Part shown: in pieces, positions 4,388 through 45,561 of the stretch
How positions within the stretch are numbered: the first letter of the stretch is position 1
Layout of the letters: every line of letters starts with the position of its first letter
NCBI GenBank assembly: GCA_045560945.1
Contig: JBJKYR010000053.1
Location: 7,605-71,604 of the forward strand
Direction: 5' to 3'
DNA: 64,000 nt
Origin: Alphaproteobacteria bacterium
Lineage (GTDB): Bacteria; Pseudomonadota; Alphaproteobacteria; HIMB59; GCA-002718135
Notes under the pieces: model-generated
The model's input: only the letters and a program-made list of their open reading frames with translations
Told to the model about the DNA's origin: nothing
The model's database searches: none
Position numbers and translations under genes: made by a program

Positions 4388-5713
4388 ATGACAGAAAAAA
4401 TAGTATTAATTGGTGCTGGTAGTGCAAATTTTGGCTTAGAGGCTGTATCTGATATTTATCGCTCTAAAATTCTTGAAGGGAGTGATATTGTACTACATGA
4501 TACTGATGCAAAGTCTCTTAAAGAAACTCAAGAAGTAGCAGATAAATACAAAGGAGAGTTCGGTGTTACTTTTAATGTTAAGTCTTCTATAGACCGAAAA
4601 GAAGCATTAAAGGGAGCTACAGTAATAGTAATATCAATTGAAGTTGCACCTCGATTTGGTTTATGGGATCAGGATTGGAAAATTCCTCAACAATATGGTA
4701 TGAAACAAATTTATGCAGAAAATGGTGGTCCTGGTGGTTTATTTCATTCGTTAAGAATAATCCCACCAATTTTAGAAATTTGTGAAGATATAAATAATAT
4801 ATGTCCTGAGGCCTATGTTTATAATTTTAGTAACCCCATGCAAAGAATTTGTCATGCAGTAACTGTAAAGTATCCAAATATGAAATTTATTGGATTATGT
4901 CATGCTATAGCGGAAATGGAAAGAGATTTACCTGAATTATTAAATACAGATTTTTCTAATATTGAATATCGTGCTGGAGGATTAAATCATATTAGTATTC
5001 TTACCGATGTAAAATATAAAGATACAAAAAAAGATGCATACCCTCTTATAAGAAAAAAGGCATTAGAATATTACAAGAACTATATTATTGATTTTGAAAA
5101 AATGAATGAACAATCTACTTCACCTGGAGCTGAAAGAGGAATATTTTTAAAATTATTTGAAACATATAATTATTTACCAATCACAACTGATAGTCATCTT
5201 GGTGAATATCTCCCTTGGGCTCATAGTATTGCTGATCATTATGCTATTCTAGAATTTTATAAAAATTATAAAGTAAATTGTCAGACTATCTATAGGTCAG
5301 AAAAAATGCACAGTTTTTATTTTGATCAAAATCGTCATTCTAAAGAAAGGCTTGTAGATTTAATGGAAGCTGTTGTAGAGGATCGAAATATGGAAGAAGC
5401 AGCCGTTAATATTCTAAATGAAGGATATATAAAACAACTTCCTAATGATATAGTTGTAGAAGTGCCAGCAATGGTAAACAAAAAAGGCATTAAGGGCATT
5501 AAATTAGATAATTATCCGGATAATTTTGCTTCAATTCTAGTTAATCAAGTTGGAACTATTCGTTTAACAACAACTGCTGTATTAGAGCAATCAAAAGAAG
5601 CTGCCTTTCATGCTTTATTAGCAGATCCAGTTGTGGATAATTTTGGTCAAGCTCAAAAATTATTAGATACTATGATAACTTTTCAAAAAGAACATTTAGG
5701 TTATTTAAAATAA
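4388..5713 (+). CDS. Glycoside hydrolase family 4 (NAD+/Mn2+-dependent glycosidase)
   Basis: 441 aa with an N-terminal Rossmann motif (KIVLIGAGSANFG) and the conserved FIGLCHA cysteine motif characteristic of GH4. Confidence 0.8.
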   Translation: MTEKIVLIGAGSANFGLEAVSDIYRSKILEGSDIVLHDTDAKSLKETQEVADKYKGEFGVTFNVKSSIDRKEALKGATVIVISIEVAPRFGLWDQDWKIPQQYGMKQIYAENGGPGGLFHSLRIIPPILEICEDINNICPEAYVYNFSNPMQRICHAVTVKYPNMKFIGLCHAIAEMERDLPELLNTDFSNIEYRAGGLNHISILTDVKYKDTKKDAYPLIRKKALEYYKNYIIDFEKMNEQSTSPGAERGIFLKLFETYNYLPITTDSHLGEYLPWAHSIADHYAILEFYKNYKVNCQTIYRSEKMHSFYFDQNRHSKERLVDLMEAVVEDRNMEEAAVNILNEGYIKQLPNDIVVEVPAMVNKKGIKGIKLDNYPDNFASILVNQVGTIRLTTTAVLEQSKEAAFHALLADPVVDNFGQAQKLLDTMITFQKEHLGYLK

Positions 5714-5714
5714 A

Positions 5715-6818
5715 TTGATACATTTAGGTATTATTGGATGTGGCTCAGTTATGCAGGGTCCTTACATGGAGTTAGTAAATAAACTTGCATTTAAAAATAT
5801 CATAAATTTAAAATCTATTTCTGATAAAAATGTAAAATTAGAGAGAGTTTTAAAAAAAAAATTTAAATTTCAATATTTTTATAATGATTATAAAAAAATT
5901 CTAAATGATAAACAAATTGATGTTGTACTTATTTTAACATCAATGAACGAACATGCATCTATTGCCAAAGAGGCTTTATTAAGTAAGAAACATGTTTTGG
6001 TTGAAAAACCTATGTCTACAAATATGGAAGATTTAAAAAAATTATTTTTACTTGCAAAAAAATCTAAAAATTTATTTGTGGCTGCTCCTTTCGTTATATT
6101 AAGTCCTACTTTTCAAGCAATTCATCAAGAAATAAATAATAACACTATAGGTAAGATATCTTTAGCAAGAGCTAGATATGGATGGTCCGGTCCGAACTGG
6201 GGTGAATGGTATTATAAAACAGGTGGTGGACCACTTTTTGATCTAGGAGTGTATAATATTACAACTTTAACAGGCCTTTTAGGGCCTGTTAAAAATATTA
6301 TAGCAAAATCATCAATTTCAAAACCATTTAGAAAAATAAATGGAAAAAAAATAAAAGTTATCACGGATGATAATTTTCAAATTTTATTAGAATTTCAAAA
6401 TAAATGTATATCAGTTGTTACAACTGGCTTCACTATGCAACAATATAGTTCACCAGCAGTTGAGCTTTACGGATCAGATGGAACTATTCAAATGCTTGGT
6501 GATGATTGGGAACCTAAAGGATATGAAATTTGGAACAATAAGAGATCTTCATGGGAATTATTTAAAACTCCATATGCTAATTGGCCTTGGGCATCGGGCT
6601 TTACACATCTTATTGATTGCATTATTAATAAAAAAAAACCTATGATATGCTTAGACCATGCGTACCATGTTAATGAAATTATGATTAAAATTTATGAGTC
6701 TTCTAAAAAAAATAAATCAATTTCTATTAATAGTTCTTTTAAACCTTTAAAATTTAATAAAAAAATTAAAATTAAAAAAAGCTATTTAGATCATGACAGG
6801 AATCATGATGACATATAA
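5715..6818 (+). CDS. Gfo/Idh/MocA family NAD(P)-dependent oxidoreductase
   Basis: 367 aa with a TTG start 1 nt after the GH4 stop. It has N-terminal GIIGCGSV and the EKPM motif (VLVEKPMS) typical of Gfo/Idh/MocA. Confidence 0.8.
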   Translation: MIHLGIIGCGSVMQGPYMELVNKLAFKNIINLKSISDKNVKLERVLKKKFKFQYFYNDYKKILNDKQIDVVLILTSMNEHASIAKEALLSKKHVLVEKPMSTNMEDLKKLFLLAKKSKNLFVAAPFVILSPTFQAIHQEINNNTIGKISLARARYGWSGPNWGEWYYKTGGGPLFDLGVYNITTLTGLLGPVKNIIAKSSISKPFRKINGKKIKVITDDNFQILLEFQNKCISVVTTGFTMQQYSSPAVELYGSDGTIQMLGDDWEPKGYEIWNNKRSSWELFKTPYANWPWASGFTHLIDCIINKKKPMICLDHAYHVNEIMIKIYESSKKNKSISINSSFKPLKFNKKIKIKKSYLDHDRNHDDI

Positions 6819-7629
6819 GTCCTCACCAAAACCAAATTATTTTAAACCAACTCTTATAAAATATGAATTAATGGAAACGTATATTTGGGGTGATGCTGAA
6901 GCAGGAAATGTTAAGGATTGGATCTATGTATCCAATGAAAGCTTACATCAGATAATATTTGGAATGGAGCCAGGTGCTAATTTCAAACATTCTAACCAAT
7001 ATAGGACAATATTTGGAGCTGATGAATTATTATATGTTCTTTCGGGAGTTTTAGTAATTAGTAATCCTGAAACTGGAGAAGTGCAAAAAATTAATAAGGG
7101 TGAGTCAGTTTTTTTCCGTAAAGATACATGGCATCATGCATTTAATTTTAGTAATGAATATTTGCAAGTTTTAGAGTTTTTTTCACCACCTCCAATCACC
7201 GGAACGTCAGGAGCTTATGGTAAAAAACAAAAGTTACTTACACATTCTATTTATAATTGCAATAAAGACAATACTAATGATGAATCATTTATTAAGGAGA
7301 GATCCTTTAAAACAATTAGAGAAAAAGATTATATTTGGTCAATTGATGGTCCAAATCAAGAAACATTAATAGGAACATTAATTAAAACAGAATTTTTAGA
7401 TGTTAGAATTATTACTTTAGGTGCGTTTAAAAAAAGTCATATATTTAAATATGATAAAAATACTTCTTACTTAAGTTTAGATGATAATTTGAGAGTAAAC
7501 ATTATTGAAGAAAAAAATTGTTATAATTTAAAAAAGAAAGATGGTTTATATATTCCGAGCTTAACTCAGTTTACACTTGAAAATTTAAATAATTATGAAG
7601 CAAGAATAATTATTTGTGTTGGTTTATAA
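6793..7629 (+). CDS. Cupin-domain protein (function unknown)
   Basis: 278 aa. The N-terminal half has a cupin-like G-x5-H...WHHAFN pattern. The C-terminal half is low-complexity and AT-driven. It overlaps the preceding gene by 26 nt, so the true start may be a downstream Met. Confidence 0.45.
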   Translation: MTGIMMTYKSSPKPNYFKPTLIKYELMETYIWGDAEAGNVKDWIYVSNESLHQIIFGMEPGANFKHSNQYRTIFGADELLYVLSGVLVISNPETGEVQKINKGESVFFRKDTWHHAFNFSNEYLQVLEFFSPPPITGTSGAYGKKQKLLTHSIYNCNKDNTNDESFIKERSFKTIREKDYIWSIDGPNQETLIGTLIKTEFLDVRIITLGAFKKSHIFKYDKNTSYLSLDDNLRVNIIEEKNCYNLKKKDGLYIPSLTQFTLENLNNYEARIIICVGL

Positions 7630-7823
7630 GATTACTTTTTATTAACTGATTCAAAAATTAATTGAAATAAATAGTGGCACCGACAAGGAGTAAATTCACA
7701 ACAAGTACAGTGCAAAATAAAAGAACTATTTTATCTATCAATGCCACAGTTATAATCTAAAGATCAAAATTGACATCAAAGAGGTCTAAATGTGTTGGTA
7801 ATAAGATATTAAAATAATAATCT

Positions 7824-7900
7824 TGGCGTGCCCGGCATGATTCGAACATACGACCCCCAGATTAGGAATCTGGTGCTCTATCCAACTGAGCTACGGGCAC
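7824..7900 (-). tRNA. tRNA-Arg (anticodon CCT), CCA encoded
   Basis: Hand-folded cloverleaf. The acceptor is GTGCCCG/CGGGCAC, the D-arm is GCTC-AGTTGGATA-GAGC, the anticodon stem is CCAGA/TCTGG with loop TTCCTAA, the T-loop is TTCGAAT, and the 3' end is CCA. Confidence 0.9.
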
Positions 7901-10555: not shown

Positions 10556-10600
10556 ATTCGATTAGGAGTCTAATGCTCTATCCTACTGAGCTACGAGTAC
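10556..10600 (-). pseudogene. Degenerate 5'-half copy of tRNA-Arg(CCT) (acceptor 5' strand, D-arm, anticodon stem-loop only)
   Basis: The minus-strand read GTACTCGTAGCTCAGTAGGATAGAGCATTAGACTCCTAATCGAAT aligns to positions 1 to about 40 of the tRNA at 7824-7900. By hand alignment about 37 of 44 positions are identical. Similarity ends at the 3' side of the anticodon stem, and no T-arm or 3' acceptor strand follows. Confidence 0.7.
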
Positions 10601-10715: not shown

Positions 10716-11054
10716 ATGAAAATATTACTATTTGTGATCTTTTTACTAACTTCATTTTGCAAATTTTCATTTTCAGATGAGCATTCAGATGAGCAAAAAA
10801 TTATTGAAATGGGTGATATAGAATATGGACAATATTTAGCTGCTGAATGTGCGTCATGCCATCAGCAGTCAGGAGCTAGTGAAGGCATTCCTTCAATACA
10901 CGGTATGGATGCAGAGGTTTTCGTTGCTTTAATGCTTGCTTACAGATCAAAAGAGATGGAAAATCCTGTTATGCAAATGATCGCTGGGAGACTTGATGAT
11001 GAACAAATTGGTTCATTGGCTCTTTATTTTAGTCAAGTAGAACCCTCAGAATGA
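10716..11054 (+). CDS. Monohaem c-type cytochrome (FccA/SoxE-like partner of the sulfide dehydrogenase flavoprotein)
   Basis: 112 aa with a signal peptide, a single CASCH haem-binding motif and a downstream Met-rich ligand region (NPVMQMIAG). It lies immediately upstream of the flavoprotein gene. Confidence 0.7.
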   Translation: MKILLFVIFLLTSFCKFSFSDEHSDEQKIIEMGDIEYGQYLAAECASCHQQSGASEGIPSIHGMDAEVFVALMLAYRSKEMENPVMQMIAGRLDDEQIGSLALYFSQVEPSE

Positions 11055-11126
11055 TCATATTTTCATTTACTTAAGGTTAAAATTTGATAACATCTTATCA
11101 TATTACAATTTTTTGGGGAGGACATA

Positions 11127-12395
11127 ATGTCAAAAATTTCAAGACGTCTTTTTAATACAGGTATTGCTGCTGCCTCAGCTGCAACACTTGCTTTTCCATC
11201 TGTATCACTTGGTGCTTTACCAAGAGTTGTAGTTATTGGAGGAGGAGCAGGTGGTGCAACCGCAGCAAGATATATTGCTAAAGACTCTGGTGGTGCAGTT
11301 CATGTAACACTTGTTGAGGCATCAAAGCGATATTATACATGCTTTTTTTCTAATATTTATTTAGGTGGATTTCGAAATTATGGTTCGATAGGCCATAATT
11401 ACTATGGTTTAGCTGTAAACCAAGGTGTGAATGTTGTTCATGAGTGGGCTGTTTCAGTTGATTCAGTTGCTAGAAAGGTCAAGCTAGGTTCTGGTGAACA
11501 TCTTTCATATGATAAACTTGTTATTTCACCCGGAATTGATCTTAAGTATGATAAAATCAATGGATATTCTGCTGCAGTTCAAGATAAAATGCCTCATGCA
11601 TGGAAGTCTGGTACTCAGGTACAGTTATTAAGAAATCAAGTAATGAATATGAAGCAAGGTGGAACTTTTGTAATGGTTCCTCCTCCAAATCCATATAGAT
11701 GTCCACCTGGACCATATGAAAGAGTGTCTATGATCGCTCATCAATTTAAACAATCTAATCCTACAGGAAAAATTGTTATTTTAGATCCTAAACCTAAATT
11801 TTCTAAACAAGGTTTATTTGAGGCAGGATGGCAAAAACATTATCCAGGAATGATAGAGTGGATTAGCTCAGAAGATCATGGTGGGCTTAAAAATGTAAAT
11901 GCTTCTACAATGGAGTTTGAAACAGATTTAGATACATTTAAAGCTGATGCTGCATGTGTTGTCCCAGCTCAAAGAGCTGGTGCTATTGCAATGGCAGCAG
12001 GTGTTAACAATGGTGACTGGTGTCCTATTGTTCCTACATCCATGCAATCTCAAGCAGATGAAAATATTTATGTTTTAGGTGATGCATCTGTTGCTAAATC
12101 AATGCCAAAGTCTGGTTTTTCAGCCAACAGTCAAGCCAAAGTAGCAGCTAATCATATCAGAGGTGCTTTAACAGGAAGTAAAGTATTTGATGCTCGTTAT
12201 TCAAATACCTGCTGGTCACTAATTGCGCCTGATGATGATGTTAAGGTTGGTGCGAGTTATGTTGGTGGCGCAGAAGCTATTGATGTTGAAAGTAAATTTA
12301 TTTCACAAGCTGATGACACTAGTGAAACGAGAGCAGCTAACTATCAAGAATCTATAGATTGGTATAATGGTATAACTGCTGATATGTTTTCTTAA
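11127..12395 (+). CDS. Flavocytochrome c sulfide dehydrogenase flavoprotein subunit (FccB/SoxF-like)
   Basis: 422 aa with a Tat signal (SRRLFNTGIAAASAATLAF) and an FAD Rossmann motif (VVVIGGGAGGATAARY). It has the paired cysteine pattern (YRCPPGPYER) typical of FCSD/SoxF. Confidence 0.8.
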   Translation: MSKISRRLFNTGIAAASAATLAFPSVSLGALPRVVVIGGGAGGATAARYIAKDSGGAVHVTLVEASKRYYTCFFSNIYLGGFRNYGSIGHNYYGLAVNQGVNVVHEWAVSVDSVARKVKLGSGEHLSYDKLVISPGIDLKYDKINGYSAAVQDKMPHAWKSGTQVQLLRNQVMNMKQGGTFVMVPPPNPYRCPPGPYERVSMIAHQFKQSNPTGKIVILDPKPKFSKQGLFEAGWQKHYPGMIEWISSEDHGGLKNVNASTMEFETDLDTFKADAACVVPAQRAGAIAMAAGVNNGDWCPIVPTSMQSQADENIYVLGDASVAKSMPKSGFSANSQAKVAANHIRGALTGSKVFDARYSNTCWSLIAPDDDVKVGASYVGGAEAIDVESKFISQADDTSETRAANYQESIDWYNGITADMFS

Positions 12396-12423
12396 AACTT
12401 TTTAATTAATAGAAACAGATAAA

Positions 12424-12446
12424 GGCGGCTAATAGCCGCCTTTTTT
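12424..12446. terminator. Bidirectional rho-independent terminator between convergent fccB-like and soxB
   Basis: A perfect 7-bp GC-rich stem GGCGGCT/AGCCGCC with a 3-nt loop, followed by T6 on the plus strand and preceded by an A-run. The T-tract overlaps the soxB stop codon. Confidence 0.6.
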
Positions 12447-14130
12447 AAACTCCCTTAATTTGTACTAGATTGTTATTTTTTGCTTTGATAATTTTTTCAT
12501 CAGAAATATAATCTTCTAATAGTTTATAAATAGGAGGTCCTTCCACTTCGGGATTTATTGATCCCCAACCACCAATAGTATAATTTTTTTGCGATTCAAT
12601 TTTTTCACCATTAGATAATTTTAGATCACTTATTCTATTTCCCATTGTGTTCTTAGGTTGACAAGTATATGTCATTCCTCCAACTCTAACCATATCACCA
12701 CCTTGCTGGAAAAAAGGATCTGGATTAAAAATATTATCACATACGTCTTCTAAAAGATTTTTTATAGTCTCACCATTCATTTCAGTTCTATATACTTCTG
12801 GATAATTCATTGAAGTTTGTGAATAAATATCGTCAATAGTTATCTTTTGACCTGGTAATAAGGTTGTTCCCCATCTAAAACCTGGGCTTAATGAAATTTC
12901 TGCATCCCTTTCCTGAATAATTGCGTCACAAATCACACTATCCCAAGGCCCACCAAAATTACCTCTTCTATAAAGCAAGGTTTCAGTTGCTCCGACAACA
13001 CGATTACATTCTTCCTCATATGGTGCTCTAATTTTATCAATTAAACTTGTCATTTCTGGATCAGGTTGAATTACATCTGAAAAAATAGGTATTAAATTTG
13101 ATGAGAAATCAACAACTTTACCATTGTCAACTTTCAGATCAATCCTGCCTAAATATTTGCCATGAGATCCAGATGAAAGAAGTAAAGTATTTTTTATCTT
13201 AATTGCTCTTGGAATTGCATCATGAGTATGGCCAGTTAGTATAACATCAACATTATCTAAAATAGCTGCTAATTTCTGATCTACATCGAACCCATTATGA
13301 GATAATATAACTACTACTTCAGCACCATTTTTTTTTGCTTTATTTATATTTTTTTGAATGATTTCTGGTCTTATTCCAAAAGACCAACCATCAACTAAGT
13401 AGCTTGGATTAGCAATAGGAGTGTATGGGAAGTGTTGACCAATAACTGCAATATTAACACCTCCTTTCTCAAAATAAGAAGTGCTTTCAAAGACAGGTTC
13501 ATCCCATTCAGTATCAAAAACATTTCCACCAAGAAATGGAAAATTTATTTTATCAATTAATTCACTAAGCCGATCTTGGCCAAGCGTAAACTCCCAATGC
13601 CCTACCATAGCATCTGGTTTTAAGAGGTTCATTGCTTCTAACATATCTTCCCCTTGAGTTTTTAAAGAAGTGTATGAACCTTGCCATGTGTCACCACCAT
13701 CTAATAAAAGTACTTTATCCTCTCCTCTTTCTCCCCTGATTTTTTTAATCAAAGCTGATGTTCTGTCTAATCCTCCGAGTTTGCCATACTCTCTAGCTAA
13801 TGGAACATAGTCAAGCATAGTATGTGCGTAAGCGAGTGGTGTGTTGGGCTCAATGCCAAAATAATCTAAAAAAACTTTTCCAACAAGATGAGGAGGAATG
13901 CCTTCGTATTTTCCAATTCCAAAATTTTCTGATGGTGGCCTAAAAAAAACAGGTTTAAGTTGGCCATGTATATCAGTTATATGCAGTAAAGTAATTTGAC
14001 CTTTTGAGTCAAATTCTAAAAGATCATTTTCAGAAATTTCTTGTTTAGCGGCAACAGCGCTCCAACTTTTGCTACCAACCAACATTGCTGTAATTGTAGC
14101 TAATTGAATAAATTCTCGCCTCGATTGCAT
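12445..14130 (-). CDS. soxB: Sulfur-oxidation thiosulfohydrolase SoxB (5'-nucleotidase/metallophosphatase family)
   Basis: 561 aa with a Tat signal (SRREFIQLATITAM). Metallophosphoesterase motifs are present (LLHITDIHG, DGGDTWQG, GHWEF, LSHNG, GHTHD), followed by a C-terminal 5'-nucleotidase-like domain. It sits in a sox operon context. Confidence 0.9.
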   Translation of the reverse strand: MQSRREFIQLATITAMLVGSKSWSAVAAKQEISENDLLEFDSKGQITLLHITDIHGQLKPVFFRPPSENFGIGKYEGIPPHLVGKVFLDYFGIEPNTPLAYAHTMLDYVPLAREYGKLGGLDRTSALIKKIRGERGEDKVLLLDGGDTWQGSYTSLKTQGEDMLEAMNLLKPDAMVGHWEFTLGQDRLSELIDKINFPFLGGNVFDTEWDEPVFESTSYFEKGGVNIAVIGQHFPYTPIANPSYLVDGWSFGIRPEIIQKNINKAKKNGAEVVVILSHNGFDVDQKLAAILDNVDVILTGHTHDAIPRAIKIKNTLLLSSGSHGKYLGRIDLKVDNGKVVDFSSNLIPIFSDVIQPDPEMTSLIDKIRAPYEEECNRVVGATETLLYRRGNFGGPWDSVICDAIIQERDAEISLSPGFRWGTTLLPGQKITIDDIYSQTSMNYPEVYRTEMNGETIKNLLEDVCDNIFNPDPFFQQGGDMVRVGGMTYTCQPKNTMGNRISDLKLSNGEKIESQKNYTIGGWGSINPEVEGPPIYKLLEDYISDEKIIKAKNNNLVQIKGV

Positions 14131-14171
14131 TATGTTACTCTAAATTATTATCTTATAATTAACTTTAATAA

Positions 14172-14825
14172 CTATTCGTCTTCTGGAGTTACATCAATAT
14201 CTCTAGCTTTTCCAATAATTTTTGTAGATACTTGACAATTACTCATACAAGGGTTTCCGTGCGTATTCATGGTGTCTGGTCTTGGATCAGGTAATAAAAA
14301 ACCATCTTTATTTGGCATCTCTATTTCACCAATATTTGTATCTGATAAAACAAAATCTTCTTCGATTATGTCACCCATATATAGAAGATAGGCTACAATT
14401 CCATAGGTTTCATCATACGATAAGGATTGCGAATCACCATATGGCATTGCTCTATAAATATAATCAAAGATTGTAGATGCGAAGGGCCAGTAACTTGTAG
14501 CAGTTTTTTCCGGATCATGTGAAGCTAAACTACCTTCACCTCCAACGAGTGGAGGCCACCTATCTGCTCCTTCACCAAAATCACCATGGCATGCTGCGCA
14601 TTGTTCAGAGTATATTTCTTCACCAAACAAAGCAGTTCCACTTCCAATTGGTGCACCCAAACCATCAGGTCTCACATCAATATCCCATCCTACAACTTCT
14701 TCTTTAGAAGCAATCTCCCCTAAATTAAATTTTCTGTCACTAGCAATTGTTGTACTTGTTAAAAATATTATACATGCAAAGCTTAGTATGCTTTTAACCA
14801 AGCCTGACATTGTCAACCTTTCCAT
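14172..14825 (-). CDS. soxD: SoxD-like monohaem cytochrome c subunit of sulfane dehydrogenase
   Basis: About 212-217 aa with a signal peptide and a single CAACH motif. It overlaps the 3' end of soxC. The true start is probably the Met at 14810 (MSGLVKS...). Confidence 0.7.
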   Translation of the reverse strand: MERLTMSGLVKSILSFACIIFLTSTTIASDRKFNLGEIASKEEVVGWDIDVRPDGLGAPIGSGTALFGEEIYSEQCAACHGDFGEGADRWPPLVGGEGSLASHDPEKTATSYWPFASTIFDYIYRAMPYGDSQSLSYDETYGIVAYLLYMGDIIEEDFVLSDTNIGEIEMPNKDGFLLPDPRPDTMNTHGNPCMSNCQVSTKIIGKARDIDVTPEDE

Positions 14826-16083
14826 TTTTAGAAACTAGCCAAGTTGCTATTGAATTATTATGATAAATTGAATTCACACCTCTAATTTTTTGAAGTTCAT
14901 CAATAGTAGGTTGGACATAATTTGTCTCATCAATTGCTCTTGATTGTAATAGTAATTCCTCACCTTTCCATTCAAATGGCAATGTAAATCTAGTTAATGA
15001 TTTACTTAGAACTGGTGAGTGAAGTTGGGCAGTTTTCCAATTCTTGCCACCATCAATCGAAACATCTACACGTTTAATTTTACCTCTACCTGACCAAGCA
15101 AGACCTCTTAATTGATGCAATCCTTTTGCAAGTATTGGTTTTTCGGGACTTGGAGAAGTTATGACAGATTTAGCATCCATAACCCAGGTAAACATTCTAG
15201 CTTTTCCACTTGTTAACAAATCTGTATATTTAGATGTTTCTTCTCTAGTCATGTAAGGTTTGTCACCAAACTCTAGTCTCCTGATCCATTTTACCCACAT
15301 ATTACCTTCCCAACCAGGAACTACGAGGCGCGCCGGATAACCTTGTTCAGGTCTTAATGCTTCTCCATTCATTGCCCAGGCAATGATACAATCATCTAAA
15401 ATTTTTTCTATAGGAATAGAGCGTGTCATTCCTGATGAATCGCTTCCTTCAGCTAAAACCCACTTGGCTTTTTCTTTTAAACCAGTCTCTAAAAGTAGAT
15501 CAGATAATTTAACACCTGTGTATTGAACATTATGCACCATTCCAAAGGTGTATTGGCATCCATTTAATTGAGATCCTCTCCATTCCATACCACCATTTGC
15601 AGCACATTCAAGAAAGTAAAATTTATTTGTTTGAGGAAAGCGTTTTAAGTCATCAAGAGTAAATATCATTTCGCGATCTACTAAACCATTGATCATCAAT
15701 CTAAAGTCTTGTGGATTAATAACTGAAACACCCCCATGATGTCTTTCAAAGCAAAGACCATTAGGTGTTACAATTCCTTCAAGATCTTGTAATGGAGTAA
15801 AATTGACTGAAGATTCAGCACTTGCTGTAAGCCACTCAACATTTCTTCTTATGACATGTCCCTCAAACTCAGAAGGCATACCGTAAGGATTTACATCAAC
15901 GCCGTCACCAAGGTATTGTGTCCACTCAGGAAGGTTTGGTGGTAAGTTTTCAGGATTTACTTCTTCTGATAAAAGGTTTTTTGGAGCCAATGAAAAAGCT
16001 CCAATACTTGAGGCGCCAATTATTAAGTCTCTACGATTAAATTTTTTAAAGTTAGACACTTCATTTTTTTTATTTTTTTTCAC
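14794..16083 (-). CDS. soxC: SoxC molybdopterin sulfane/sulfite dehydrogenase subunit
   Basis: 429 aa with a Tat signal (NRRDLIIGASS) and sulfite-oxidase-family Moco-domain motifs (FERHHGG, FLECAANG, ARLVVPGWEGNMWVKW). A C-terminal dimerisation domain follows. Confidence 0.85.
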   Translation of the reverse strand: MKKNKKNEVSNFKKFNRRDLIIGASSIGAFSLAPKNLLSEEVNPENLPPNLPEWTQYLGDGVDVNPYGMPSEFEGHVIRRNVEWLTASAESSVNFTPLQDLEGIVTPNGLCFERHHGGVSVINPQDFRLMINGLVDREMIFTLDDLKRFPQTNKFYFLECAANGGMEWRGSQLNGCQYTFGMVHNVQYTGVKLSDLLLETGLKEKAKWVLAEGSDSSGMTRSIPIEKILDDCIIAWAMNGEALRPEQGYPARLVVPGWEGNMWVKWIRRLEFGDKPYMTREETSKYTDLLTSGKARMFTWVMDAKSVITSPSPEKPILAKGLHQLRGLAWSGRGKIKRVDVSIDGGKNWKTAQLHSPVLSKSLTRFTLPFEWKGEELLLQSRAIDETNYVQPTIDELQKIRGVNSIYHNNSIATWLVSKNGKVDNVRLG

Positions 16084-16085
16084 TA

Positions 16086-16412
16086 TTAAGAAACAACCAT
16101 ATCTTTAGAGATTGAATATATTTCCCCATTATCGTCTATCCATTCAAAATCAAATTTACCACTTTCTTTCGCTTTAAATTGAAAAACAATATAAGGATTG
16201 GTTGATATTGACGGCTCAAGATCCATCTGAAAAACTTCTTTTCCATTAAATTTAGCACTAAATGAATTAATTATATGTCTTGGTATTGTTTGACCATCCA
16301 TATCTTTCATTCTACCACTATGCATAGGGTGTCTAATTAATGTTTTAATTTCAACAACCTCATCAATAGATACTTCTTTAGGTACTTTTACTCTTGGTTT
16401 AATTGAAGACAT
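16086..16412 (-). CDS. soxZ: SoxZ sulfur-carrier complex subunit
   Basis: 108 aa. Its size, its position directly after soxY, and the KTLIRHPMHSG segment are typical of SoxZ. Confidence 0.8.
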   Translation of the reverse strand: MSSIKPRVKVPKEVSIDEVVEIKTLIRHPMHSGRMKDMDGQTIPRHIINSFSAKFNGKEVFQMDLEPSISTNPYIVFQFKAKESGKFDFEWIDDNGEIYSISKDMVVS

Positions 16413-16426
16413 AATTACTCCTTATA

Positions 16427-16903
16427 TTATCCGCCACATCCACCAATTGTGACTTTTACTTGTGCATTGGTCATGAGAAATTGACCATTATTATTTTCAG
16501 CTAATAAATAAACATTTTGTGTTTTTGATAATCGTATTCTTGTTGTTGCAGAACATGATCCCATTTCTGGTGTGAAAGAGAATTTTGCAACATTTGGTGA
16601 AGGGTTTCCGTCTGCTAAAATATAAACAGTTTTAATATGATCAGAATCAGTCATAGGGGTATCCAATTCAAAACTAACTTTTACCTGATTGCCATTTTCT
16701 GCAATTTCTGGTAAATCCAGCCAAATATCACTTTCAGTTGCACCCAATCCATTTGTAATTTCATTTATTCTGTTTAAAGCTTGGTTAGATTGTGCAAATG
16801 ATATTGAAGGCAAAATTGCTGTTCCTGTAAAACCAGCAATAATTTGCAAGGCGTTTCTTCTTGAAATTTTTCTTAATTTTTTTAACCTCATTGATATCCT
16901 CAT
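16427..16903 (-). CDS. soxY: SoxY sulfur-carrier protein
   Basis: 158 aa with a Tat signal (SRRNALQIIAG) and the diagnostic C-terminal swinging-arm motif VTIGGCGG at the very end of the protein. Confidence 0.9.
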   Translation of the reverse strand: MRISMRLKKLRKISRRNALQIIAGFTGTAILPSISFAQSNQALNRINEITNGLGATESDIWLDLPEIAENGNQVKVSFELDTPMTDSDHIKTVYILADGNPSPNVAKFSFTPEMGSCSATTRIRLSKTQNVYLLAENNNGQFLMTNAQVKVTIGGCGG

Positions 16904-16970
16904 AGATTGTAAAGAAAGTAAATATTTAATATATTATGTAATAATAAATTTATTCAAATCAATCAAATAT

Positions 16971-17333
16971 TTAATCACGATCAAGAATTTCATCAACTTG
17001 CCACCAAAACATTTCTGCACTTGAATATCCTATAATGCGTCCAATTTCTTCTTTTTCCTTAAAAAAAACAAATGTTGGTGTAATTTTTGTTTCATTACTG
17101 TCTAAATCATTCCTTATTGAGTGTTCGTCAAGCTCAATTCTTTCCAAAGGGAAACTTTTGGCAATATCAGTCTTAGGGTAAATTTTACCAATTTCTTTTT
17201 CCCAAATTTGACAGTAAACACAATAATCAGCAGTTATCATGAGAAGCTTACTATCAGCAAAAGATGATTTTAATGATAATAAAAAAATTACTATTAAAAC
17301 TAATGTAAAATTGTACAATTTCTTAAACACCAT
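16971..17333 (-). CDS. Periplasmic thioredoxin-fold protein (SoxS/SoxW-like)
   Basis: 120 aa with a signal peptide and a single CVYC redox motif followed by W..EI....YP. It lies between the pseudoazurin gene and soxY. Confidence 0.55.
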   Translation of the reverse strand: MVFKKLYNFTLVLIVIFLLSLKSSFADSKLLMITADYCVYCQIWEKEIGKIYPKTDIAKSFPLERIELDEHSIRNDLDSNETKITPTFVFFKEKEEIGRIIGYSSAEMFWWQVDEILDRD

Positions 17334-17368
17334 AAGAAAATCTAATTTGTTAGGTCTTTCAAAAAAAA

Positions 17369-17791
17369 TTAAAGTTCTTTTAATAACTCTTTAAATATTT
17401 TTTTTGATTTACCTCCCATTTTTGCTTTTTTAATTTTATCTAAATTGCTTAGGTCATCTCCAACCACAACTAAACCAATCATGCCCATTGATTTATGAGG
17501 AGTACAAACGTATAAATAGATACCTGGAATTTCAAATTTATATTCTGCATCTTTACTTATTTTTGATTTGAATTTTTCAACTCCATTTGGCATCTCTACA
17601 AATTCAACATTATGCCCTTTATCTACTGATTTCCAAATAATAGAGTCACCAATATCTACTTTTGCAACTTTTATGGAATAAACCATTTTTTCTTTTCCAA
17701 GTTTATTCACCATGTCTATTTCGATAGTCTCAGCATAGCTATAAAAAGATATTGAGATGCATGAAATAATTAAAAAAAGATATTTAAACAT
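17369..17791 (-). CDS. Pseudoazurin (type-1 blue copper electron carrier)
   Basis: 140 aa with a signal peptide. The copper ligand pattern is DKGHNVE ... YLYVCTPHKSMGMIGLVVVGD, and the C-terminal helix region is NLDKIKKAKMGGKSKK. It tracks Paracoccus-type pseudoazurin closely, from memory of that sequence. Confidence 0.85.
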   Translation of the reverse strand: MFKYLFLIISCISISFYSYAETIEIDMVNKLGKEKMVYSIKVAKVDIGDSIIWKSVDKGHNVEFVEMPNGVEKFKSKISKDAEYKFEIPGIYLYVCTPHKSMGMIGLVVVGDDLSNLDKIKKAKMGGKSKKIFKELLKEL

Positions 17792-17976: not shown

Positions 17977-18053
17977 GCGCCCGTAGCTCAATTGGATAGA
18001 GCGCCAGACTACGGATCTGGAGGTTAGGAGTTCGACTCTTCTCGGGCGCGCCA
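17977..18053 (+). tRNA. tRNA-Arg (anticodon ACG), CCA encoded
   Basis: Hand-folded cloverleaf. The acceptor is GCGCCCG/CGGGCGC, the anticodon stem is CCAGA/TCTGG with loop CTACGGA, the T-loop is TTCGACT, and the 3' end is CCA. Confidence 0.9.
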
Positions 18054-18108
18054 GATAATTTATTTAACTATATATTTGTAACCTAAAAGTTTTGTAGTAT
18101 TAAGCATT

Positions 18109-19158
18109 ATGATTGAAAATATAAGTTTGTCTGATCTTCAAAATAATAAAGATCTAAATAAATATTTTTTAACTGCAAAATTAGAAAATATAAATCAAAA
18201 CTGTAATTATTATAAAGGTAATTTTTATTTAGATTCTTTTAACTACTATCCCATAACTGAAGATTATAAATCATTCGATGAACTTTTTGTAAGAGTAAAT
18301 AAAAATTCAATTTCACATTATCACACTGAAGCTTTTTATAAAAAACTTAAGGATAGACTAAATAAAATAAAGGTTTTTAAAGATATCTGTGTAATTGGAA
18401 GTAATCCAGGAAATAATTATTTTTCGAATTTAATTCATTTTTTACCAAGAATTTTTTTTGAAAATGAAAAACAAATCAAAATCGCAGTTCATAGAAATTT
18501 ATCAAATAAATTTCGATCATTTATTGAACATTTGTTAATTTTAAAAAATATAGACTTCACTTTTACTTATTTAGACGACGATTTTTATAAATTTGAAAAC
18601 TCCAAAATACCTCAATTTTTAAATACTTTAACTTCAATAAATATATTAAAATCAATTAAAGATTTTACTCCAAAAAAAAAATCAGAGTTTGAAAAAATAT
18701 ATATAAGAAGAGAAGATGTAAAATATAGAAATATTTTAAATGAAGCTGATATAATTGATAAATTAAAAAAAAATGGGTTTAAAATTGTTAGTACTAGTCA
18801 ATATGAGATATTAGATCAGATAAATTTTTTTGTTAATGCAAAGATTGTTGTATCACCATACGGTTCTGGTTTGGCAAATATAGTCTTTTGTAAACCTGGA
18901 ACAAAAGTCTTTGAAATTTCACCTAATTTTACTAACATAAACGATCAAAATCTCTCAAAAAGATATGAAATATTATGCAAACTTTGTAATTTAAATTTTC
19001 ATAGGTTTTTTGGAGACTCTGTTGATGTAAAAAAACATGATGAATTATCAAAAAAATATATTAATGAAACAATGCTAACAGAAAGTAATTATTACAAGGA
19101 CATGATAATAAAATTAAGTGAAGTAGATAAAATTATTCAGCAACCAATTGATGAATAA
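18109..19158 (+). CDS. Glycosyltransferase family 61 / DUF563-like protein
   Basis: 349 aa. The C-terminal motif VVSPYGSGLANIVFCKPGTKVFEI resembles the GT61/DUF563 HGAGLTN block. The gene is extremely AT-rich. Confidence 0.5.
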   Translation: MIENISLSDLQNNKDLNKYFLTAKLENINQNCNYYKGNFYLDSFNYYPITEDYKSFDELFVRVNKNSISHYHTEAFYKKLKDRLNKIKVFKDICVIGSNPGNNYFSNLIHFLPRIFFENEKQIKIAVHRNLSNKFRSFIEHLLILKNIDFTFTYLDDDFYKFENSKIPQFLNTLTSINILKSIKDFTPKKKSEFEKIYIRREDVKYRNILNEADIIDKLKKNGFKIVSTSQYEILDQINFFVNAKIVVSPYGSGLANIVFCKPGTKVFEISPNFTNINDQNLSKRYEILCKLCNLNFHRFFGDSVDVKKHDELSKKYINETMLTESNYYKDMIIKLSEVDKIIQQPIDE

Positions 19159-20168
19159 GATAATATACTGACTATATTTAATTTAATTCGATTGCATATA
19201 TTAATATATCTATCTTCAATATTCTGTTTTTTCATAAAATTAATAGAAATTAATTTATCAAATAAAAAATCTTTTTGTTTATGGTTTTTATAAATTTTAT
19301 AGTCTTGAAATTTATTTTCTTTTATTATTAAAGTTAATAATTCATTTAAACTAATTTCATCATCAATTAAAAATTTATTTTTAGCTTGAAAAGAGTTGAA
19401 AATTAATCCACCAATCTCATCTTTAATTATTTTTTTTTCTAACTTTCTATTCTTAGAAACTAACTGAATAAAATCTGCATTAATTTTTTCAACCATTGCA
19501 TTTAGATGATTTAACTCTTCATTTGTTGGTTTTCTAAATGAATTGAATAAATCTTTTGATTTACCAGCATTAGTTGAATAAACTTCTATTTCATTTTCGA
19601 CTTCTATTGTTTGCCCTAAAAAGCCAGATGAAATTAATTTTGGTTTATTGAAGTAAAACCAATCAGGTCCCTTTACACCAATACTTCCAATAATAGATCC
19701 ATAGCTTGCGTAAATTTTTTCTCCTGAAAGAGAAGACCAATATCCACCAGATGCTAATATTTCAGATGTATGAAAGATTATACTTGCATTAGATTTTTTC
19801 TTAAAAGCTAAAAAGGAATTGTATAATTCATTTGATGCGCTAACTGTCCCTCCCGGTGAATTTATTGAAACTATTAAAATTTTCGGATCAATTAGAAGAA
19901 TTTTTTCTAATTTTTTTTGAATTCTAGCCGGGGATATAAAGTTAAAGCCAACTAAATCATTAAGCGAATTATTACTTTCAATTATGGGCCCATTAATCTC
20001 CAAAATGACTATTGAATTCTTAGATTCTTCATTGCCTTTTATTAAATTAAACTCATTATTATTTTGACTATTTGTATAAGCGGAAATTCCTATAATTATT
20101 AAAAAAAATAGCAAAATTGCAAAAAAAAACCCTAAAGTCCTGAAAAAAACATTAAAAAAAATACTCAT
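19137..20168 (-). CDS. sppA: Signal peptide peptidase SppA (36K type)
   Basis: 343 aa with an N-terminal membrane anchor. It has the ClpP/crotonase-fold SPGG serine motif (INSPGGTVSASNELY) and the downstream GSIGV block. Confidence 0.75.
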   Translation of the reverse strand: MSIFFNVFFRTLGFFFAILLFFLIIIGISAYTNSQNNNEFNLIKGNEESKNSIVILEINGPIIESNNSLNDLVGFNFISPARIQKKLEKILLIDPKILIVSINSPGGTVSASNELYNSFLAFKKKSNASIIFHTSEILASGGYWSSLSGEKIYASYGSIIGSIGVKGPDWFYFNKPKLISSGFLGQTIEVENEIEVYSTNAGKSKDLFNSFRKPTNEELNHLNAMVEKINADFIQLVSKNRKLEKKIIKDEIGGLIFNSFQAKNKFLIDDEISLNELLTLIIKENKFQDYKIYKNHKQKDFLFDKLISINFMKKQNIEDRYINICNRIKLNIVSILSYSSIGC

Positions 20169-20254
20169 AAGTACTGTTTTTATATATTAAAATATAAAAA
20201 AAATGTTTTTTTTTCATATTTGGGCTTGATAAGAATTTTTTAATGCTTAAATGA

Positions 20255-20281
20255 TTAGCACTCTATTAGCAAGAGTGCTAA
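20255..20281 (+). promoter_or_regulatory. CIRCE operator (HrcA binding site) upstream of groES
   Basis: TTAGCACTC-TATTAGCAA-GAGTGCTAA is a perfect match to the CIRCE inverted repeat consensus TTAGCACTC-N9-GAGTGCTAA. It lies 42 nt before the groES ATG. A possible -35/-10 pair (TTGATA at 20226, TAAATG at 20248) sits just upstream; that pair is low confidence. Confidence 0.85.
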
Positions 20282-20322
20282 TAAAAAAATGTTAATTTTC
20301 AATAATTTAAATTGAGGAAAAT

Positions 20323-20631
20323 ATGAACTTTAAACCATTACATGACAGAGTGCTCGTTAGAAGAGTTGAATCTGATCAAAAAACAGCAGGTGGAATTATA
20401 ATTCCAGATACTGCCCAAGAAAAACCTATGGAAGGTGAAGTGCTTGAAACTGGTTCTGGCGCAAGAGATGAAGTAGGAAAATTAGTTCCATTAGACGTAA
20501 AAAAAGGAGATAAAATTCTTTTTGGTAAATGGTCAGGGACTGAAGTTAAAATGAATGGAGAAGATTATCTAATAATGAAAGAATCTGACATTATGGGAAT
20601 TATTACTCCAAATAAAAAGAAGAAAAAATAA
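20323..20631 (+). CDS. groES: Co-chaperonin GroES
   Basis: 102 aa. The [16 protein letters not shown]...[13 protein letters not shown] sequence is canonical GroES. Confidence 0.95.
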
Positions 20632-20648
20632 ATTAATTAAGAAATTAA

Positions 20649-22325
<1,677 letters not shown>

Positions 22326-22350
22326 TAACCCAAATATTTTGAATTTTATA

Positions 22351-22377
22351 AGCCCCCTTATAAGGGGGCTTTTTTTA
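22351..22377 (+). terminator. Rho-independent terminator after groEL
   Basis: The palindrome AGCCCCCTTA/TAAGGGGGCT forms a GC-rich hairpin and is followed by T7. The T-tract overlaps the stop of the convergent gpx gene. Confidence 0.7.
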
Positions 22378-22923
22378 TAACAAATTATTTATTTTACTTA
22401 ATATTTTAGAATTATCAGGTTTAGTCATAGAGGACCATGAGGAATTGAGTTTTCCACTTCTATCAAAAAGATATTTATAGAAGTTCCATTTAGGGCTTTT
22501 GTCATATTCCTTTACTAACCAACTAAATATTTCATGCGCATCATCACCTTTTACGCTTAATGGCGAGGAAGTAACAAATCCAACATCATAATTAACTAAA
22601 CATATTTTTTTAATATCTTCATTAGATGAATATTCTTGATTAAATGAGTTACTCGTTATTGCCAATATCGTTAAGTCTGTATTTTTGTAATGTATAAAAA
22701 GATTTTGAAGATTTTCATATTGAGGAGTAAAACCACATCTTGATGCTGTGTTGACCATAAATATTGGCTTACCTGCGAATTTATTTAAATCAACTGAGTT
22801 TCCATCAATATCTTCAAAGGAAAAATCATAAATTGTCATATTTTTTGTATATCCTGTGTTCCAATAAAAAAACATTAATAAAAAAGTGATTAATCTAATG
22901 GATTTCATGGTATTAATAGTCAT
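22375..22923 (-). CDS. Glutathione peroxidase (secreted/periplasmic)
   Basis: 182 aa with a signal peptide. It has the catalytic-Cys motif VNTASRCGFTPQY and a WNF block (PKWNFYKYL). Confidence 0.85.
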   Translation of the reverse strand: MTINTMKSIRLITFLLMFFYWNTGYTKNMTIYDFSFEDIDGNSVDLNKFAGKPIFMVNTASRCGFTPQYENLQNLFIHYKNTDLTILAITSNSFNQEYSSNEDIKKICLVNYDVGFVTSSPLSVKGDDAHEIFSWLVKEYDKSPKWNFYKYLFDRSGKLNSSWSSMTKPDNSKILSKINNLL

Positions 22924-22943
22924 AACTTATAAATAAATAGAAA

Positions 22944-24077
22944 ATGGAAGCTATCAATAGTTTTAAGAAACTTTTTTTAGAAGTGTGGAATGAAGGTATT
23001 TTTGGCCTAAATGCTTCTGAAATTATAATAGGTTTTATTATTTTTTTAGTATTTTATGTTTTACGAAGGTTATTTGCGAGATTTATTATAAGTAAATTAA
23101 ATAAGTTGGTTAGCAGAACTTCAACTAAAATCGACAACACTGTTGTAGAGGTAATTGAGGGACCTTTAAAGTTTCTACCTATTGTTTTAGGATTTTTTAT
23201 TGCAACTTCTTACATTGAACTATCGATAGAGGTGCAAGACTTTATAGATTTACTAAATAGAACCTTAATTACAATTTTTATTTTTTGGCTGCTTCATCAA
23301 CTAGTTATTCCATTTTCTTACATTGTTAAGAATTTTGAAGATAAAATATCTAAACCACTTGTTAACTGGACTTTAAAAGGATTAGAAATAATTATTATTG
23401 TTCTTGGAATTGTTGCTGTTTTAGAACTTTGGGGGATTAAAGTTGGGCCTGTTATAGCTGGATTAGGATTGTTCGGTGTTGCTGTAGCATTGGGAGCGCA
23501 AGATTTATTTAAAAATCTAATTAGCGGTATTATGATATTAATGGAAAAAAGATTTACTATAGGTGACGTGATTTTAGTATCTAATGAAGTTGAAGGTGTT
23601 GTAGAACAAATAGGTTTCAGATCAACTTTAGTTAGACGATTTGATTCAACACCAGTGATGATACCTAATTATAAATTTGCTGAACAATCTGTAACTAACT
23701 ACTCAAGAAGACATCATAGACGAATTCGATGGCTTATAGGCCTTGAATACAAAACTAATATTGATCAACTAAAAAAAATTAGAGATCAGATAAGTACATT
23801 AATTAAAGAGAATAAAGATTTTGCAAAGAATGAAAATAGTGGTTTTTTTGTTCGAATAGATAGTTTTTCTGACAGCTCAATAGATATGTTAGTTCAGGCA
23901 TTTACGGTTACAAATGATTGGTCAGAGTTTTTAAAAATTAAGGAAGAGTTAGCAGTTTCTATTATAGAAATAGTTGAATCAAATAAAGCTGGCTTTGCTT
24001 TTCCTAGTCAATCTTTATATGTTGAGTCTTTCCCAAATGAAAAAGCTGAGATATTCAATCCAAAATCCTCACAATGA
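22944..24077 (+). CDS. Mechanosensitive ion channel, MscS family
   Basis: 377 aa with N-terminal TM helices. The pore helix/beta-domain signature is GAQDLFKNLISGIMILMEKRFTIGDVI. Confidence 0.8.
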   Translation: MEAINSFKKLFLEVWNEGIFGLNASEIIIGFIIFLVFYVLRRLFARFIISKLNKLVSRTSTKIDNTVVEVIEGPLKFLPIVLGFFIATSYIELSIEVQDFIDLLNRTLITIFIFWLLHQLVIPFSYIVKNFEDKISKPLVNWTLKGLEIIIIVLGIVAVLELWGIKVGPVIAGLGLFGVAVALGAQDLFKNLISGIMILMEKRFTIGDVILVSNEVEGVVEQIGFRSTLVRRFDSTPVMIPNYKFAEQSVTNYSRRHHRRIRWLIGLEYKTNIDQLKKIRDQISTLIKENKDFAKNENSGFFVRIDSFSDSSIDMLVQAFTVTNDWSEFLKIKEELAVSIIEIVESNKAGFAFPSQSLYVESFPNEKAEIFNPKSSQ

Positions 24078-31972: not shown

Positions 31973-33327
31973 ATGATTAAACATGTTACATCAGTGGATC
32001 AATCAGATAGAAAGGTCCCATATAATCTAAGACAGAGTGGTTCAACACCTGTTAAAATGTTAATTTCAACACGTGTTAGAAAATCTCCATATTGGCATCT
32101 TTCTATGGAAGCTGGATGTTGGAGAGCTACTGTCTACAATCGTGTCTATCATCCAAGGGGTTATGTAAAACCTGAAGATGGTGGAGCAATGGTAGAATAT
32201 GAAGCAATAAAGAACCACGTTACAATGTGGAACGTTGCAGTTGAGAGACAAATTCAAGTAAAAGGCCAGATGCTGAAGCATTTACAGATTACGTTATTAC
32301 TCGTGACGCAACAAGAATACCAATCATGAAAGCAGACGGATCTGTTAGAGCAGCTAGATACGTTATTCTTTGTAATCATATGGGTGGGGTTTTAAATGAT
32401 CCAATTCTTTTAAGAGTTGCAAAAGATGAATTCTGGTTCTCATTATCCGATTCTGATATTGGATTATATTTACAAGGAGTCAATCACGACAAAAAATTTG
32501 ATGTTGAAATTGATGAAATTGATGTTTGTCCAGTGCAAATTCAAGGTCCAAAAGCTCATGCATTAATGAAAGACTTAATTGGAGATCAAGTAGACATAGA
32601 CGGTATGCCTTTTTATGGTTTGGCTGAAGCAAAAGTTGGAGGAAGAAAATGTGTAATTTCTCAAACAGGTTTTTCTGGAGCAGCAGGTTTTGAAATTTAC
32701 CTTTATGATGCTACTCTATATGCAGATGATATGTGGAATGCTGTTTTGGATGCAGGAAAAAAGCATAATTTAATGGTAATAGCCCCAGCTCACCATAGAA
32801 GAATTCAAGCTGGAATTTTGTCTTGGGGTCAGGATATGGATAACCAACATAATCCTTTTCAATGTAATTTAGGATATCAAGTATCTCTTTCTGGTGTAGG
32901 AGAATGGAATAAATCTAGTGACTATATTGGAAAAGAGGCTTTGGAGAAAATGAAAAAAGAAATTACTTCAGGGGATAAACCTTACAAACTTCAGTTAGTA
33001 GGAATGGTATTAGGAGGAAAACCAATTGAGGAATATGCTCCTGATTTTTGGTTAGTTTCTCCTGCTGAAGGAGGGGATCCTTGCGGCTATATTACTTCAC
33101 CATGGTACCATCCAGAACAAAAAAGAAATATTGCTATGGGTTATGTTCCATTTGATGGAACACTTAGCAGTAATGGTTTCCCAATTGGAAAAGTTGGCCA
33201 AAAATTCAAAGTTCATCTTCCAGATGAATATGCTGACTCACCAGGTGTTCCTGTAGATGCTGAAGTTGTTTCTATACCATTTACAGAATCTTACAACGCT
33301 AACACTAGAGAAGTTTCAAAAGCATAA
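31973..33327 (+). pseudogene. Aminomethyltransferase (GcvT/DmdA) family protein, frame broken by a missing C at 32266-32267
   Basis: ORF 31973-32329 ends ...VERQIQVKG and then runs out of frame. The frame of ORF 32326-33327 is already open from 32266 and reads PDAEAFTDYVITRDATRIPIMKADG... The joined sequence (RKSPYW...VYN..Y.P..Y...EY..I...V..W.V.VERQ..V.GPDA) follows the DmdA/GcvT N-terminal pattern. Confidence 0.8.
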
Positions 33328-45207: not shown

Positions 45208-45212
45208 ATTAA

Positions 45213-45560: not shown

Positions 45561-45561
45561 T

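Follow-up and report, generated by a model that had tools for sequence, protein, structure and literature searches.

In the standard sulfur-oxidation (Sox) pathway, thiosulfate is coupled to SoxY by SoxXA, SoxB then cleaves off sulfate by hydrolysis, and SoxCD takes the SoxY-persulfide to the S-sulfonate in a six-electron step (PMC9959259). The truncated systems that lack SoxCD (Allochromatium, green sulfur bacteria, SUP05, Acidithiobacillus) keep SoxYZ, SoxB and SoxXA, load thiosulfate and accumulate sulfane. The opposite truncation was described in a survey of 349 SAR116 genomes, where subclades II and III have soxCDBYZ and fccAB and no soxAX (Lanclos et al., ISME J 2025, PMC12262181). The genome counts in Table S2 of that paper are 19 for SoxA, 17 for SoxX, 86 for SoxB, 84 for SoxC, 77 for SoxY and 86 for fccB, and its authors proposed that sulfide-derived sulfur is oxidised via sulfane to sulfate through soxCDBYZ, with co-occurring fccAB. 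Here we analyse a 64,000-nucleotide stretch of contig JBJKYR010000053.1 (assembly GCA_045560945.1; hereafter the window), in which positions 10716–17791 carry a nine-gene cassette that likewise keeps SoxYZ, SoxB and SoxCD and has no SoxXA. In our judgement it is probably a functional SoxXA-less periplasmic sulfur-oxidation cassette of the SAR116 kind, residing in a HIMB59/AEGEAN-169 genome and most likely acquired by horizontal transfer.

The cassette closely resembles those of SAR116 subclades II and III, and those found in a part of subclade I. The gene content, the absence of soxAX, the adjacent fccAB and the order trx-Y-Z-C-D-B (trx being the thioredoxin gene) are the same, the proteins are 75–95% identical, and in trees the window cassette is nested within this group. 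The differences lie in the host, which belongs to another order, HIMB59, in an unrelated genomic context bordered by tRNA genes, and in the pseudoazurin gene heading the operon; pseudoazurin is not mentioned in the SAR116 survey (PMC12262181). The preliminary description of this DNA had presented a Sox module without SoxXA as unexpected. That claim is weakened, as the XA-less cassette has been in print for SAR116 since 2025 (PMC12262181). The new elements are a host from HIMB59/AEGEAN-169, the likely transfer between orders, and the finding that cytochrome c550 and pseudoazurin take each other's place between soxD and soxB in related loci.

Gene content of the cassette

The nine genes are close-packed, seven on the minus strand and two, convergent with them, on the plus strand, in a window of about 30% GC content. 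The preliminary description had reported this operon with its convergent cytochrome and FccB genes, and all nine genes are found where it placed them, with consistent Pfam calls throughout. It had also given the gaps between genes as 2–67 nt. There is indeed no space for extra genes, but the cytochrome and fccB genes stand 72 nt apart, and soxC shares 32 nt with soxD.

Four of the minus-strand genes score above the cut-offs of NCBIfam equivalog models. These are soxY (16427–16903), encoding the carrier protein, which ends in GGCGG (TIGR04488, SoxY_true_GGCGG, 129.6 bits, cut-off 125; Pfam SoxY); soxZ (16086–16412; TIGR04490, 106.9 bits, cut-off 76; Pfam SoxZ); soxC (14794–16083), encoding the molybdoprotein subunit of sulfane dehydrogenase (TIGR04555, 623 bits, cut-off 420, compared with 144 bits for the SorA model and 137 bits for the SorT model); and soxB (12445–14130), encoding the thiosulfohydrolase (TIGR04486, 805.7 bits, cut-off 550). 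Hence the earlier SoxB, SoxY and SoxZ calls hold under profile scoring, and so does SoxC. The soxD product (14172–14825, minus strand) has one CAACH motif and matches 2XTS_B, the SoxD1 chain of the Paracoccus SoxCD structure, with E = 2e-56 over residues 32–216; thus it is a monohaem protein consisting of the SoxD1 domain only.

Two further genes precede soxY on the minus strand. The first gene of the operon (17369–17791) encodes a pseudoazurin, a periplasmic blue-copper electron carrier. Its TIGR02375 score of 100.6 bits is slightly below the cut-off of 109.85; this is by far the best-scoring family. Pfam assigns Copper-bind, the match to the solved pseudoazurins 5X31 and 1PAZ has E = 1e-24, and the type-1 copper ligands His, Cys, His and Met are retained with pseudoazurin spacing (motifs DKGHNVE and CTPHxxMGM). 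The second (16971–17333) encodes a SoxS-like periplasmic thioredoxin (Pfam Thioredoxin_2). Its best solved match is 3D4T/3DML (E = 1.5e-11), with CLYC aligned to the CVYC motif; these structures, labelled as uncharacterised in PDB, we take to be Paracoccus SoxS.

The plus-strand pair encodes a flavocytochrome c sulfide dehydrogenase (FCSD). Its flavoprotein FccB/SoxF (11127–12395) carries the Pfam domains FCSD_central (PF21706, 153 bits) and FCSD-flav_bind (PF09242). It aligns end to end with 5N1T_A of Thioalkalivibrio paradoxus (E = 6e-108) and matches 1FCD_A of Allochromatium vinosum (E = 3e-97), and its cysteine motifs YTC, RCPPGPYER and TCWS/TCYS, with the cysteine that links FAD and the two redox-active ones, align with those of 5N1T_A. 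The monohaem cytochrome c FccA/SoxE (10716–11054; one CASCH) is its partner: the top solved-structure match is 5N1T_B, the cytochrome subunit of the same crystal (E = 1.8e-10). Unlike these two known enzymes, the window FCSD is gene-linked to SoxYZ, SoxCD and SoxB, in the position of soxEF.

Twin-arginine (Tat) motifs are found in the translations of SoxY (SRRNAL), SoxC (NRRDLI), SoxB (SRREFI) and FccB (SRRLF), and both cytochromes, the thioredoxin and the pseudoazurin have Sec-type signals.

The preliminary description had found no SoxXA in this block, and that holds both for the operon and for the whole window. A six-frame scan of the 64 kb yields just two CxxCH motifs, the haem sites of FccA and SoxD. 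A tblastn search of the window with SoxX and SoxA queries taken from related loci (confirmed with TIGR04485, 83 bits, and TIGR04484, 230 bits, both above the cut-off) gives a best E-value of 0.26, that is, no SoxX or SoxA. For the reductant relay proteins SoxV and SoxW, tblastn gives no match in the window, nor in any of the XA-less loci.

A GC-rich hairpin (12421–12443, no strand assigned), likely a shared terminator, lies where the stop codons of fccB and soxB face each other. Promoter-like sites in the cassette region show no excess over shuffled sequence. A plus-strand open reading frame (ORF) of 111 amino acids (aa) at 16689–17024, antisense to soxY and the thioredoxin gene, is almost certainly spurious. 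No regulator was seen adjacent to the window cassette; in the single-amplified genome (SAG) of a SAR116 subclade IIb member (locus L037, 6419–6709, minus strand) a gene for a 96-aa CsoR/RcnR-like protein, which may be a sulfane-sulfur-responsive repressor, stands directly upstream of the cassette.

Relatives, host lineage and transfer

The relatives are 80 loci from a SoxB scan of species-representative genomes, cited here by L numbers, on which the nine proteins and SoxX, SoxA, SoxV and SoxW were mapped. Three architectures are observed. The canonical form, X-Y-Z-A-B-C-D-E-F with soxV and soxW upstream and a divergent soxS, occurs in Thalassospira, Hoeflea and the Rhizobiaceae (L066–L080). 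The complete SAR116 form is trx-X-Y-Z-A-V-W-C-D-c550-soxH-B (L050, L055, L057). The form without X, A, V and W is trx-Y-Z-C-D-B with an adjacent fccB-cytc pair (cytc being the cytochrome gene); it is shared by the window and about 60 loci with GC content of 29–60%, and in about 60 loci the SoxS-like thioredoxin gene heads the cassette. SoxX, SoxA, SoxV and SoxW are confined to L050, L055, L057 and the canonical L066–L080. The FCSD pair occurs in all three forms; it represents soxEF, kept throughout, and does not specifically accompany the loss of XA. Thus the pairing with FCSD, earlier singled out as special, is what Paracoccus-type clusters and the XA-containing relatives also have.

Compared with the Paracoccus pantotrophus-type system (soxRSVWXYZABCDEFGH; here L066–L080), the window has homologous SoxYZ with GGCGG, SoxB, SoxCD, a SoxS-like protein and SoxEF/FCSD, with identities of 40–67%, and in both cases all the proteins are periplasmic. 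The window cassette lacks SoxX, SoxA, SoxV and SoxW, and no SoxR regulator was seen in it. Further, its SoxD is monohaem, whereas that of the Paracoccus type is dihaem, and the gene order is Y-Z-C-D-B and not X-Y-Z-A-B-C-D.

All nine genes have pairwise omega values of 0.03–0.3, both across HIMB59 species and against the SAR116 copies. The most constrained is SoxC (0.03–0.08), and the pseudoazurin has values of 0.06–0.11. Comparisons at about 30% nucleotide identity (soxY in L007, L013 and L014, soxD in L014) were excluded as threading artefacts. Judged by these substitution patterns, every gene of the cassette is under purifying selection and the cassette is functional.

The host can be placed by the surrounding genes. 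The region 17977–23220 (tRNA-Arg, a 349-aa ORF, sppA, groES, groEL) is 92% identical at the nucleotide level to SAG AG-414-M20, with GroEL 99% identical at the amino acid level, and the region 5460–7817 is 94% identical to SAG AG-447-P14. These and the other closest SAGs are classified as o__HIMB59; f__GCA-002718135; g__AG-337-I02 (PMC10734472, supplement) and have GC content of 29–30% and an estimated size of 1.6–1.9 Mb (PMC10734472). They are not on the SAR116 genome list of PMC12262181. Exact-sequence look-ups with the SoxB and GroEL of the window gave no match, and a GroEL homology search and cluster look-up yielded just the name "Alphaproteobacteria bacterium", with no Pelagibacter-named match down to 78% identity. 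HIMB59/AEGEAN-169, once called "SAR11 subclade V", is nowadays regarded as separate (PMC10308909, title) and ranked as an order of its own. By these identities, the host is a member of HIMB59/AEGEAN-169, genus AG-337-I02, and neither SAR116 nor SAR11 proper. The preliminary description had spoken of a streamlined lineage depending on reduced organic sulfur, which is imprecise: strain HIMB59 has no sat gene, but such dependence in AG-337-I02 is unsupported.

Published genome analyses of AEGEAN-169/HIMB59 cover how sugars, trace metals and vitamins are used (PMC10308909, PMC10734472). Sulfur, sulfide, thiosulfate and sox are mentioned neither in the AEGEAN-169 paper (PMC10308909) nor in the HIMB59 one (PMC10734472), and sox terms are absent from the supplements of the latter. 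Nor does sox appear in a published study of lateral gene transfer among marine prokaryoplankton, and a literature search returned no paper linking HIMB59, AEGEAN-169 or AG-337-I02 to Sox or sulfur oxidation. In bottle incubations with hydrothermal fluid of the Tagoro volcano, amplicon sequence variants of SAR116 and AEGEAN-169 were significantly associated with the treated bottles (PMC11807932). This circumstantial observation, which is no proof, fits with reduced-sulfur oxidation shared by the two groups.

The phylogeny of the cassette was assessed by neighbour-joining on SoxB, SoxC and FccB (57 taxa, 1394 columns, 100 bootstraps). The window and the HIMB59 SAGs form a group that is extended successively by L013 (AG-422-K21, SAR116 subclade Ib.III according to PMC12262181), by L014 (a Puniceispirillales metagenome-assembled genome, MAG) and by SAR116 subclade II, and all four nested bipartitions appear in 100 of 100 bootstraps. 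Outside the nested groups fall the SAR116 forms with XA, as do the canonical clusters. Hence the SoxB and SoxC phylogeny, suggested as a check in the preliminary description, groups the window cassette with the XA-less SAR116 lineages. The dS values between the window and L013 are 0.45–0.9, that is, unsaturated; as saturation would be expected for vertical descent in two different orders, transfer between the orders is likely. The flanking genes of the HIMB59 loci share nothing with the SAR116 flanks. On this evidence, the simplest reading is likely inter-order transfer of the cassette from a SAR116 lineage to HIMB59.

Within the genus AG-337-I02 the cassette is found in at least four different contexts upstream of the thioredoxin gene (L004, L006, L007, L009, L011, L001). 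Upstream of it stand permease genes of a branched-chain ATP-binding cassette (ABC) transporter, or a mutY-like gene, or the tRNA/groESL region, or else a DmdA-like gene, and with neighbours so varied the cassette behaves as flexible-genome content. In the window, one edge of the cassette is marked by the remnant of the 5'-half of a tRNA-Arg(cct) gene (10560–10600, minus strand), a 41-nt partial copy 85% identical to positions 7860–7900 of the intact tRNA-Arg(cct) at 7824–7900. Between the two lies a 2.7-kb insert with TIM-barrel, Tm-1/UPF0261-like and cupin genes, not seen in relatives. In L001, the intact tRNA-Arg(cct) is directly beside cytc and is followed by a different 5-kb insert. The other edge is tRNA-Arg(acg) (17977–18053, plus strand), where homology with relatives outside the cassette restarts. 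Hence the sox cassette adjoins what looks like a tRNA-associated insertion hotspot.

Other parts of the window contain genes of sulfur and methyl-group metabolism. A dmdA-like gene (GcvT family, similar to the demethylase of dimethylsulfoniopropionate, DMSP) at 31973–33327 on the plus strand is interrupted near 32265 by a single-base frameshift that divides it into two ORFs; the sequence reads ...QVKG|PDAEAF..., with a C missing from 'GGCCCAGAT'; this is either a pseudogene or a sequencing error. The minus-strand region 41657–46824 encodes sarcosine oxidase subunits, and the window also encodes dimethylglycine dehydrogenase, the electron-transfer flavoprotein (ETF) and its quinone oxidoreductase (ETF-QO), and formate-tetrahydrofolate ligase. 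The sarcosine oxidase genes are also annotated as soxBDAG, and this naming could mislead keyword searches for soxA.

Source of the sulfur and role of pseudoazurin

In the absence of SoxXA, the SoxYZ, SoxCD and SoxB proteins would be limited to sulfane sulfur already present on SoxY, and the linked FCSD is the obvious source of it. FccAB would oxidise sulfide to an enzyme-bound persulfide or polysulfide, and the sulfane sulfur would be handed to the C-terminal cysteine of SoxY, either enzymatically or via thiol exchange. SoxCD would then oxidise SoxY-S-S(-) to SoxY-S-SO3(-) with the transfer of six electrons, and SoxB would release sulfate by hydrolysis, regenerating SoxY, while the SoxS-like thioredoxin may hold the SoxY thiol in the reduced state. 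Pseudoazurin or a soluble cytochrome c would take up the electrons from the haems of FccA and SoxD and deliver them to the terminal oxidase. Such a cassette should not use thiosulfate. All these steps go beyond the identity of the genes, from which we infer them. Action on sulfane, probably derived from sulfide via FCSD, was among the options named in the preliminary description; it is the best-supported mechanism and coincides with the published SAR116 hypothesis (PMC12262181). In a more specific version, which we put forward tentatively and which is possible though somewhat doubtful, the cassette would be a self-contained mobile module whose FCSD directly persulfidates SoxY and so dispenses with SoxXA, taking sulfide to sulfate with eight electrons, and which spread among streamlined oligotrophs that are not related to each other, from SAR116 to HIMB59/AEGEAN-169.

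Several points weigh against a transferred, functional cassette independent of SoxXA. We know of no experiment showing XA-independent loading of SoxY, and the reconstituted Paracoccus system reportedly needed SoxXA even for the oxidation of sulfide. The absence of SoxXA covers the 64 kb of the window and the 20-kb neighbourhoods of the relatives, not whole genomes of the HIMB59 order. The SAR116 evidence comes largely from incomplete SAGs and MAGs, and whether the cassette went from SAR116 Ib.III to HIMB59 or the other way is judged from two outgroup genomes labelled as SAR116.

Pseudoazurin is variably present. In addition to the window, it is found in six of the twelve HIMB59 loci (L001, L002, L003, L005, L010, L038); in five (L004, L006, L007, L009, L011) it is missing within 10 kb, and L008 is truncated and hence uninformative. 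No cassette of SAR116 subclade II has it. SAR116 relatives of higher GC content carry, between soxD and soxB, either a c550 gene (L043 and L060, as well as the complete forms L050, L055 and L057) or a pseudoazurin gene (L045–L047, L054, L064). In Thalassospira, SoxD and a c550-like domain form one fused protein, whereas the window SoxD is the SoxD1 domain alone. Coordinates for these arrangements are L043 9583–9948, L045 9547–9915, L050 8638–9018 and L067 13069–14169. The variable presence and the c550/pseudoazurin swap point to an optional electron shuttle and not to a substitute for SoxXA. The distribution fits with pseudoazurin being a soluble carrier, exchangeable for another, that accepts electrons from SoxCD and FccA, and within this one operon family a copper carrier would seem to replace a haem iron carrier.

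The same distribution bears on the suggestion that a non-homologous loader, either pseudoazurin acting as an oxidant or an unrecognised protein, replaces SoxXA, so that thiosulfate is still the substrate. Pseudoazurin is indeed co-transcribed and under purifying selection, and it is linked to XA-less cassettes in two operon positions. However, it is missing from five of the twelve congeneric cassettes and from all those of SAR116 subclade II, its soxD–soxB position is interchangeable with that of cytochrome c550, a cupredoxin would offer no site for the coupling of thiosulfate to cysteine, and no further conserved unassigned gene accompanies the cassette. Pseudoazurin as the alternative loader, proposed in the preliminary description, thus loses ground, and we consider any such loader very unlikely. 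An ordinary split system, with soxXA and perhaps soxVW elsewhere in the genome and canonical oxidation of thiosulfate, is unlikely too. In its favour, the inspected 64 kb are part of a genome of about 1.7 Mb, and split sox loci are known in other bacteria, for instance in Allochromatium. Against it stands the joint absence of soxX, soxA, soxV and soxW from about 60 loci, where the XA-containing relatives hold all four in the operon, and genomes of the SAR116 donor type have no soxAX genome-wide in the 349-genome survey (PMC12262181). A metagenome scan with a SoxA profile points the same way, the best 80 of more than 591 loci all having GC content of at least 42% against about 30% in this lineage, although this is a weak test of low power.

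It is also improbable that the module chiefly disposes of sulfite or organic persulfides from organosulfur catabolism rather than of sulfide. The dmdA-like gene and the genes for C1 and methyl oxidation in the window are in agreement with such a role, and in the words of the SAR116 survey the soxCDBYZ suite "may also oxidize sulfite" (PMC12262181). On the other hand, the dmdA-like gene is frameshifted, and SoxC scores as a SoxC equivalog and not as SorA or SorT, the models of which reach only about 140 bits. Further, Paracoccus SoxCD is not known to have dehydrogenase activity on free sulfite, and the loading of sulfite on SoxY requires SoxXA. Sulfite as a substrate, also raised in the preliminary description, is hence disfavoured. 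Finally, the loss of the initiating enzyme could be taken to mean that the cassette has no present function and is what remains of a once complete Sox operon in decay. The reading frames are all intact, the signal peptides and active-site motifs are present, the arrangement is kept in about 60 loci over the whole GC range given above, and the omega values across species effectively refute decay, the probability of which we regard as negligible.

Biological meaning

The lineage AEGEAN-169/HIMB59 is abundant in the surface ocean. If the cassette works as a SoxXA-less oxidation system fed by FCSD, a part of this lineage could use sulfide or sulfane sulfur as an energy source, which is also the proposal made for SAR116, and the trait would pass from order to order as one unit. 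In the more specific and somewhat doubtful version with a mobile module and direct persulfidation of SoxY, some of the most abundant heterotrophs of the surface ocean would have a lithoheterotrophic energy supplement from trace sulfide arising in the turnover of DMSP, methanethiol or cysteine. Surveys based on the soxB marker would, if the cassette works as proposed, overcount thiosulfate oxidisers, since a SoxB of this kind lacks the accompanying SoxXA.

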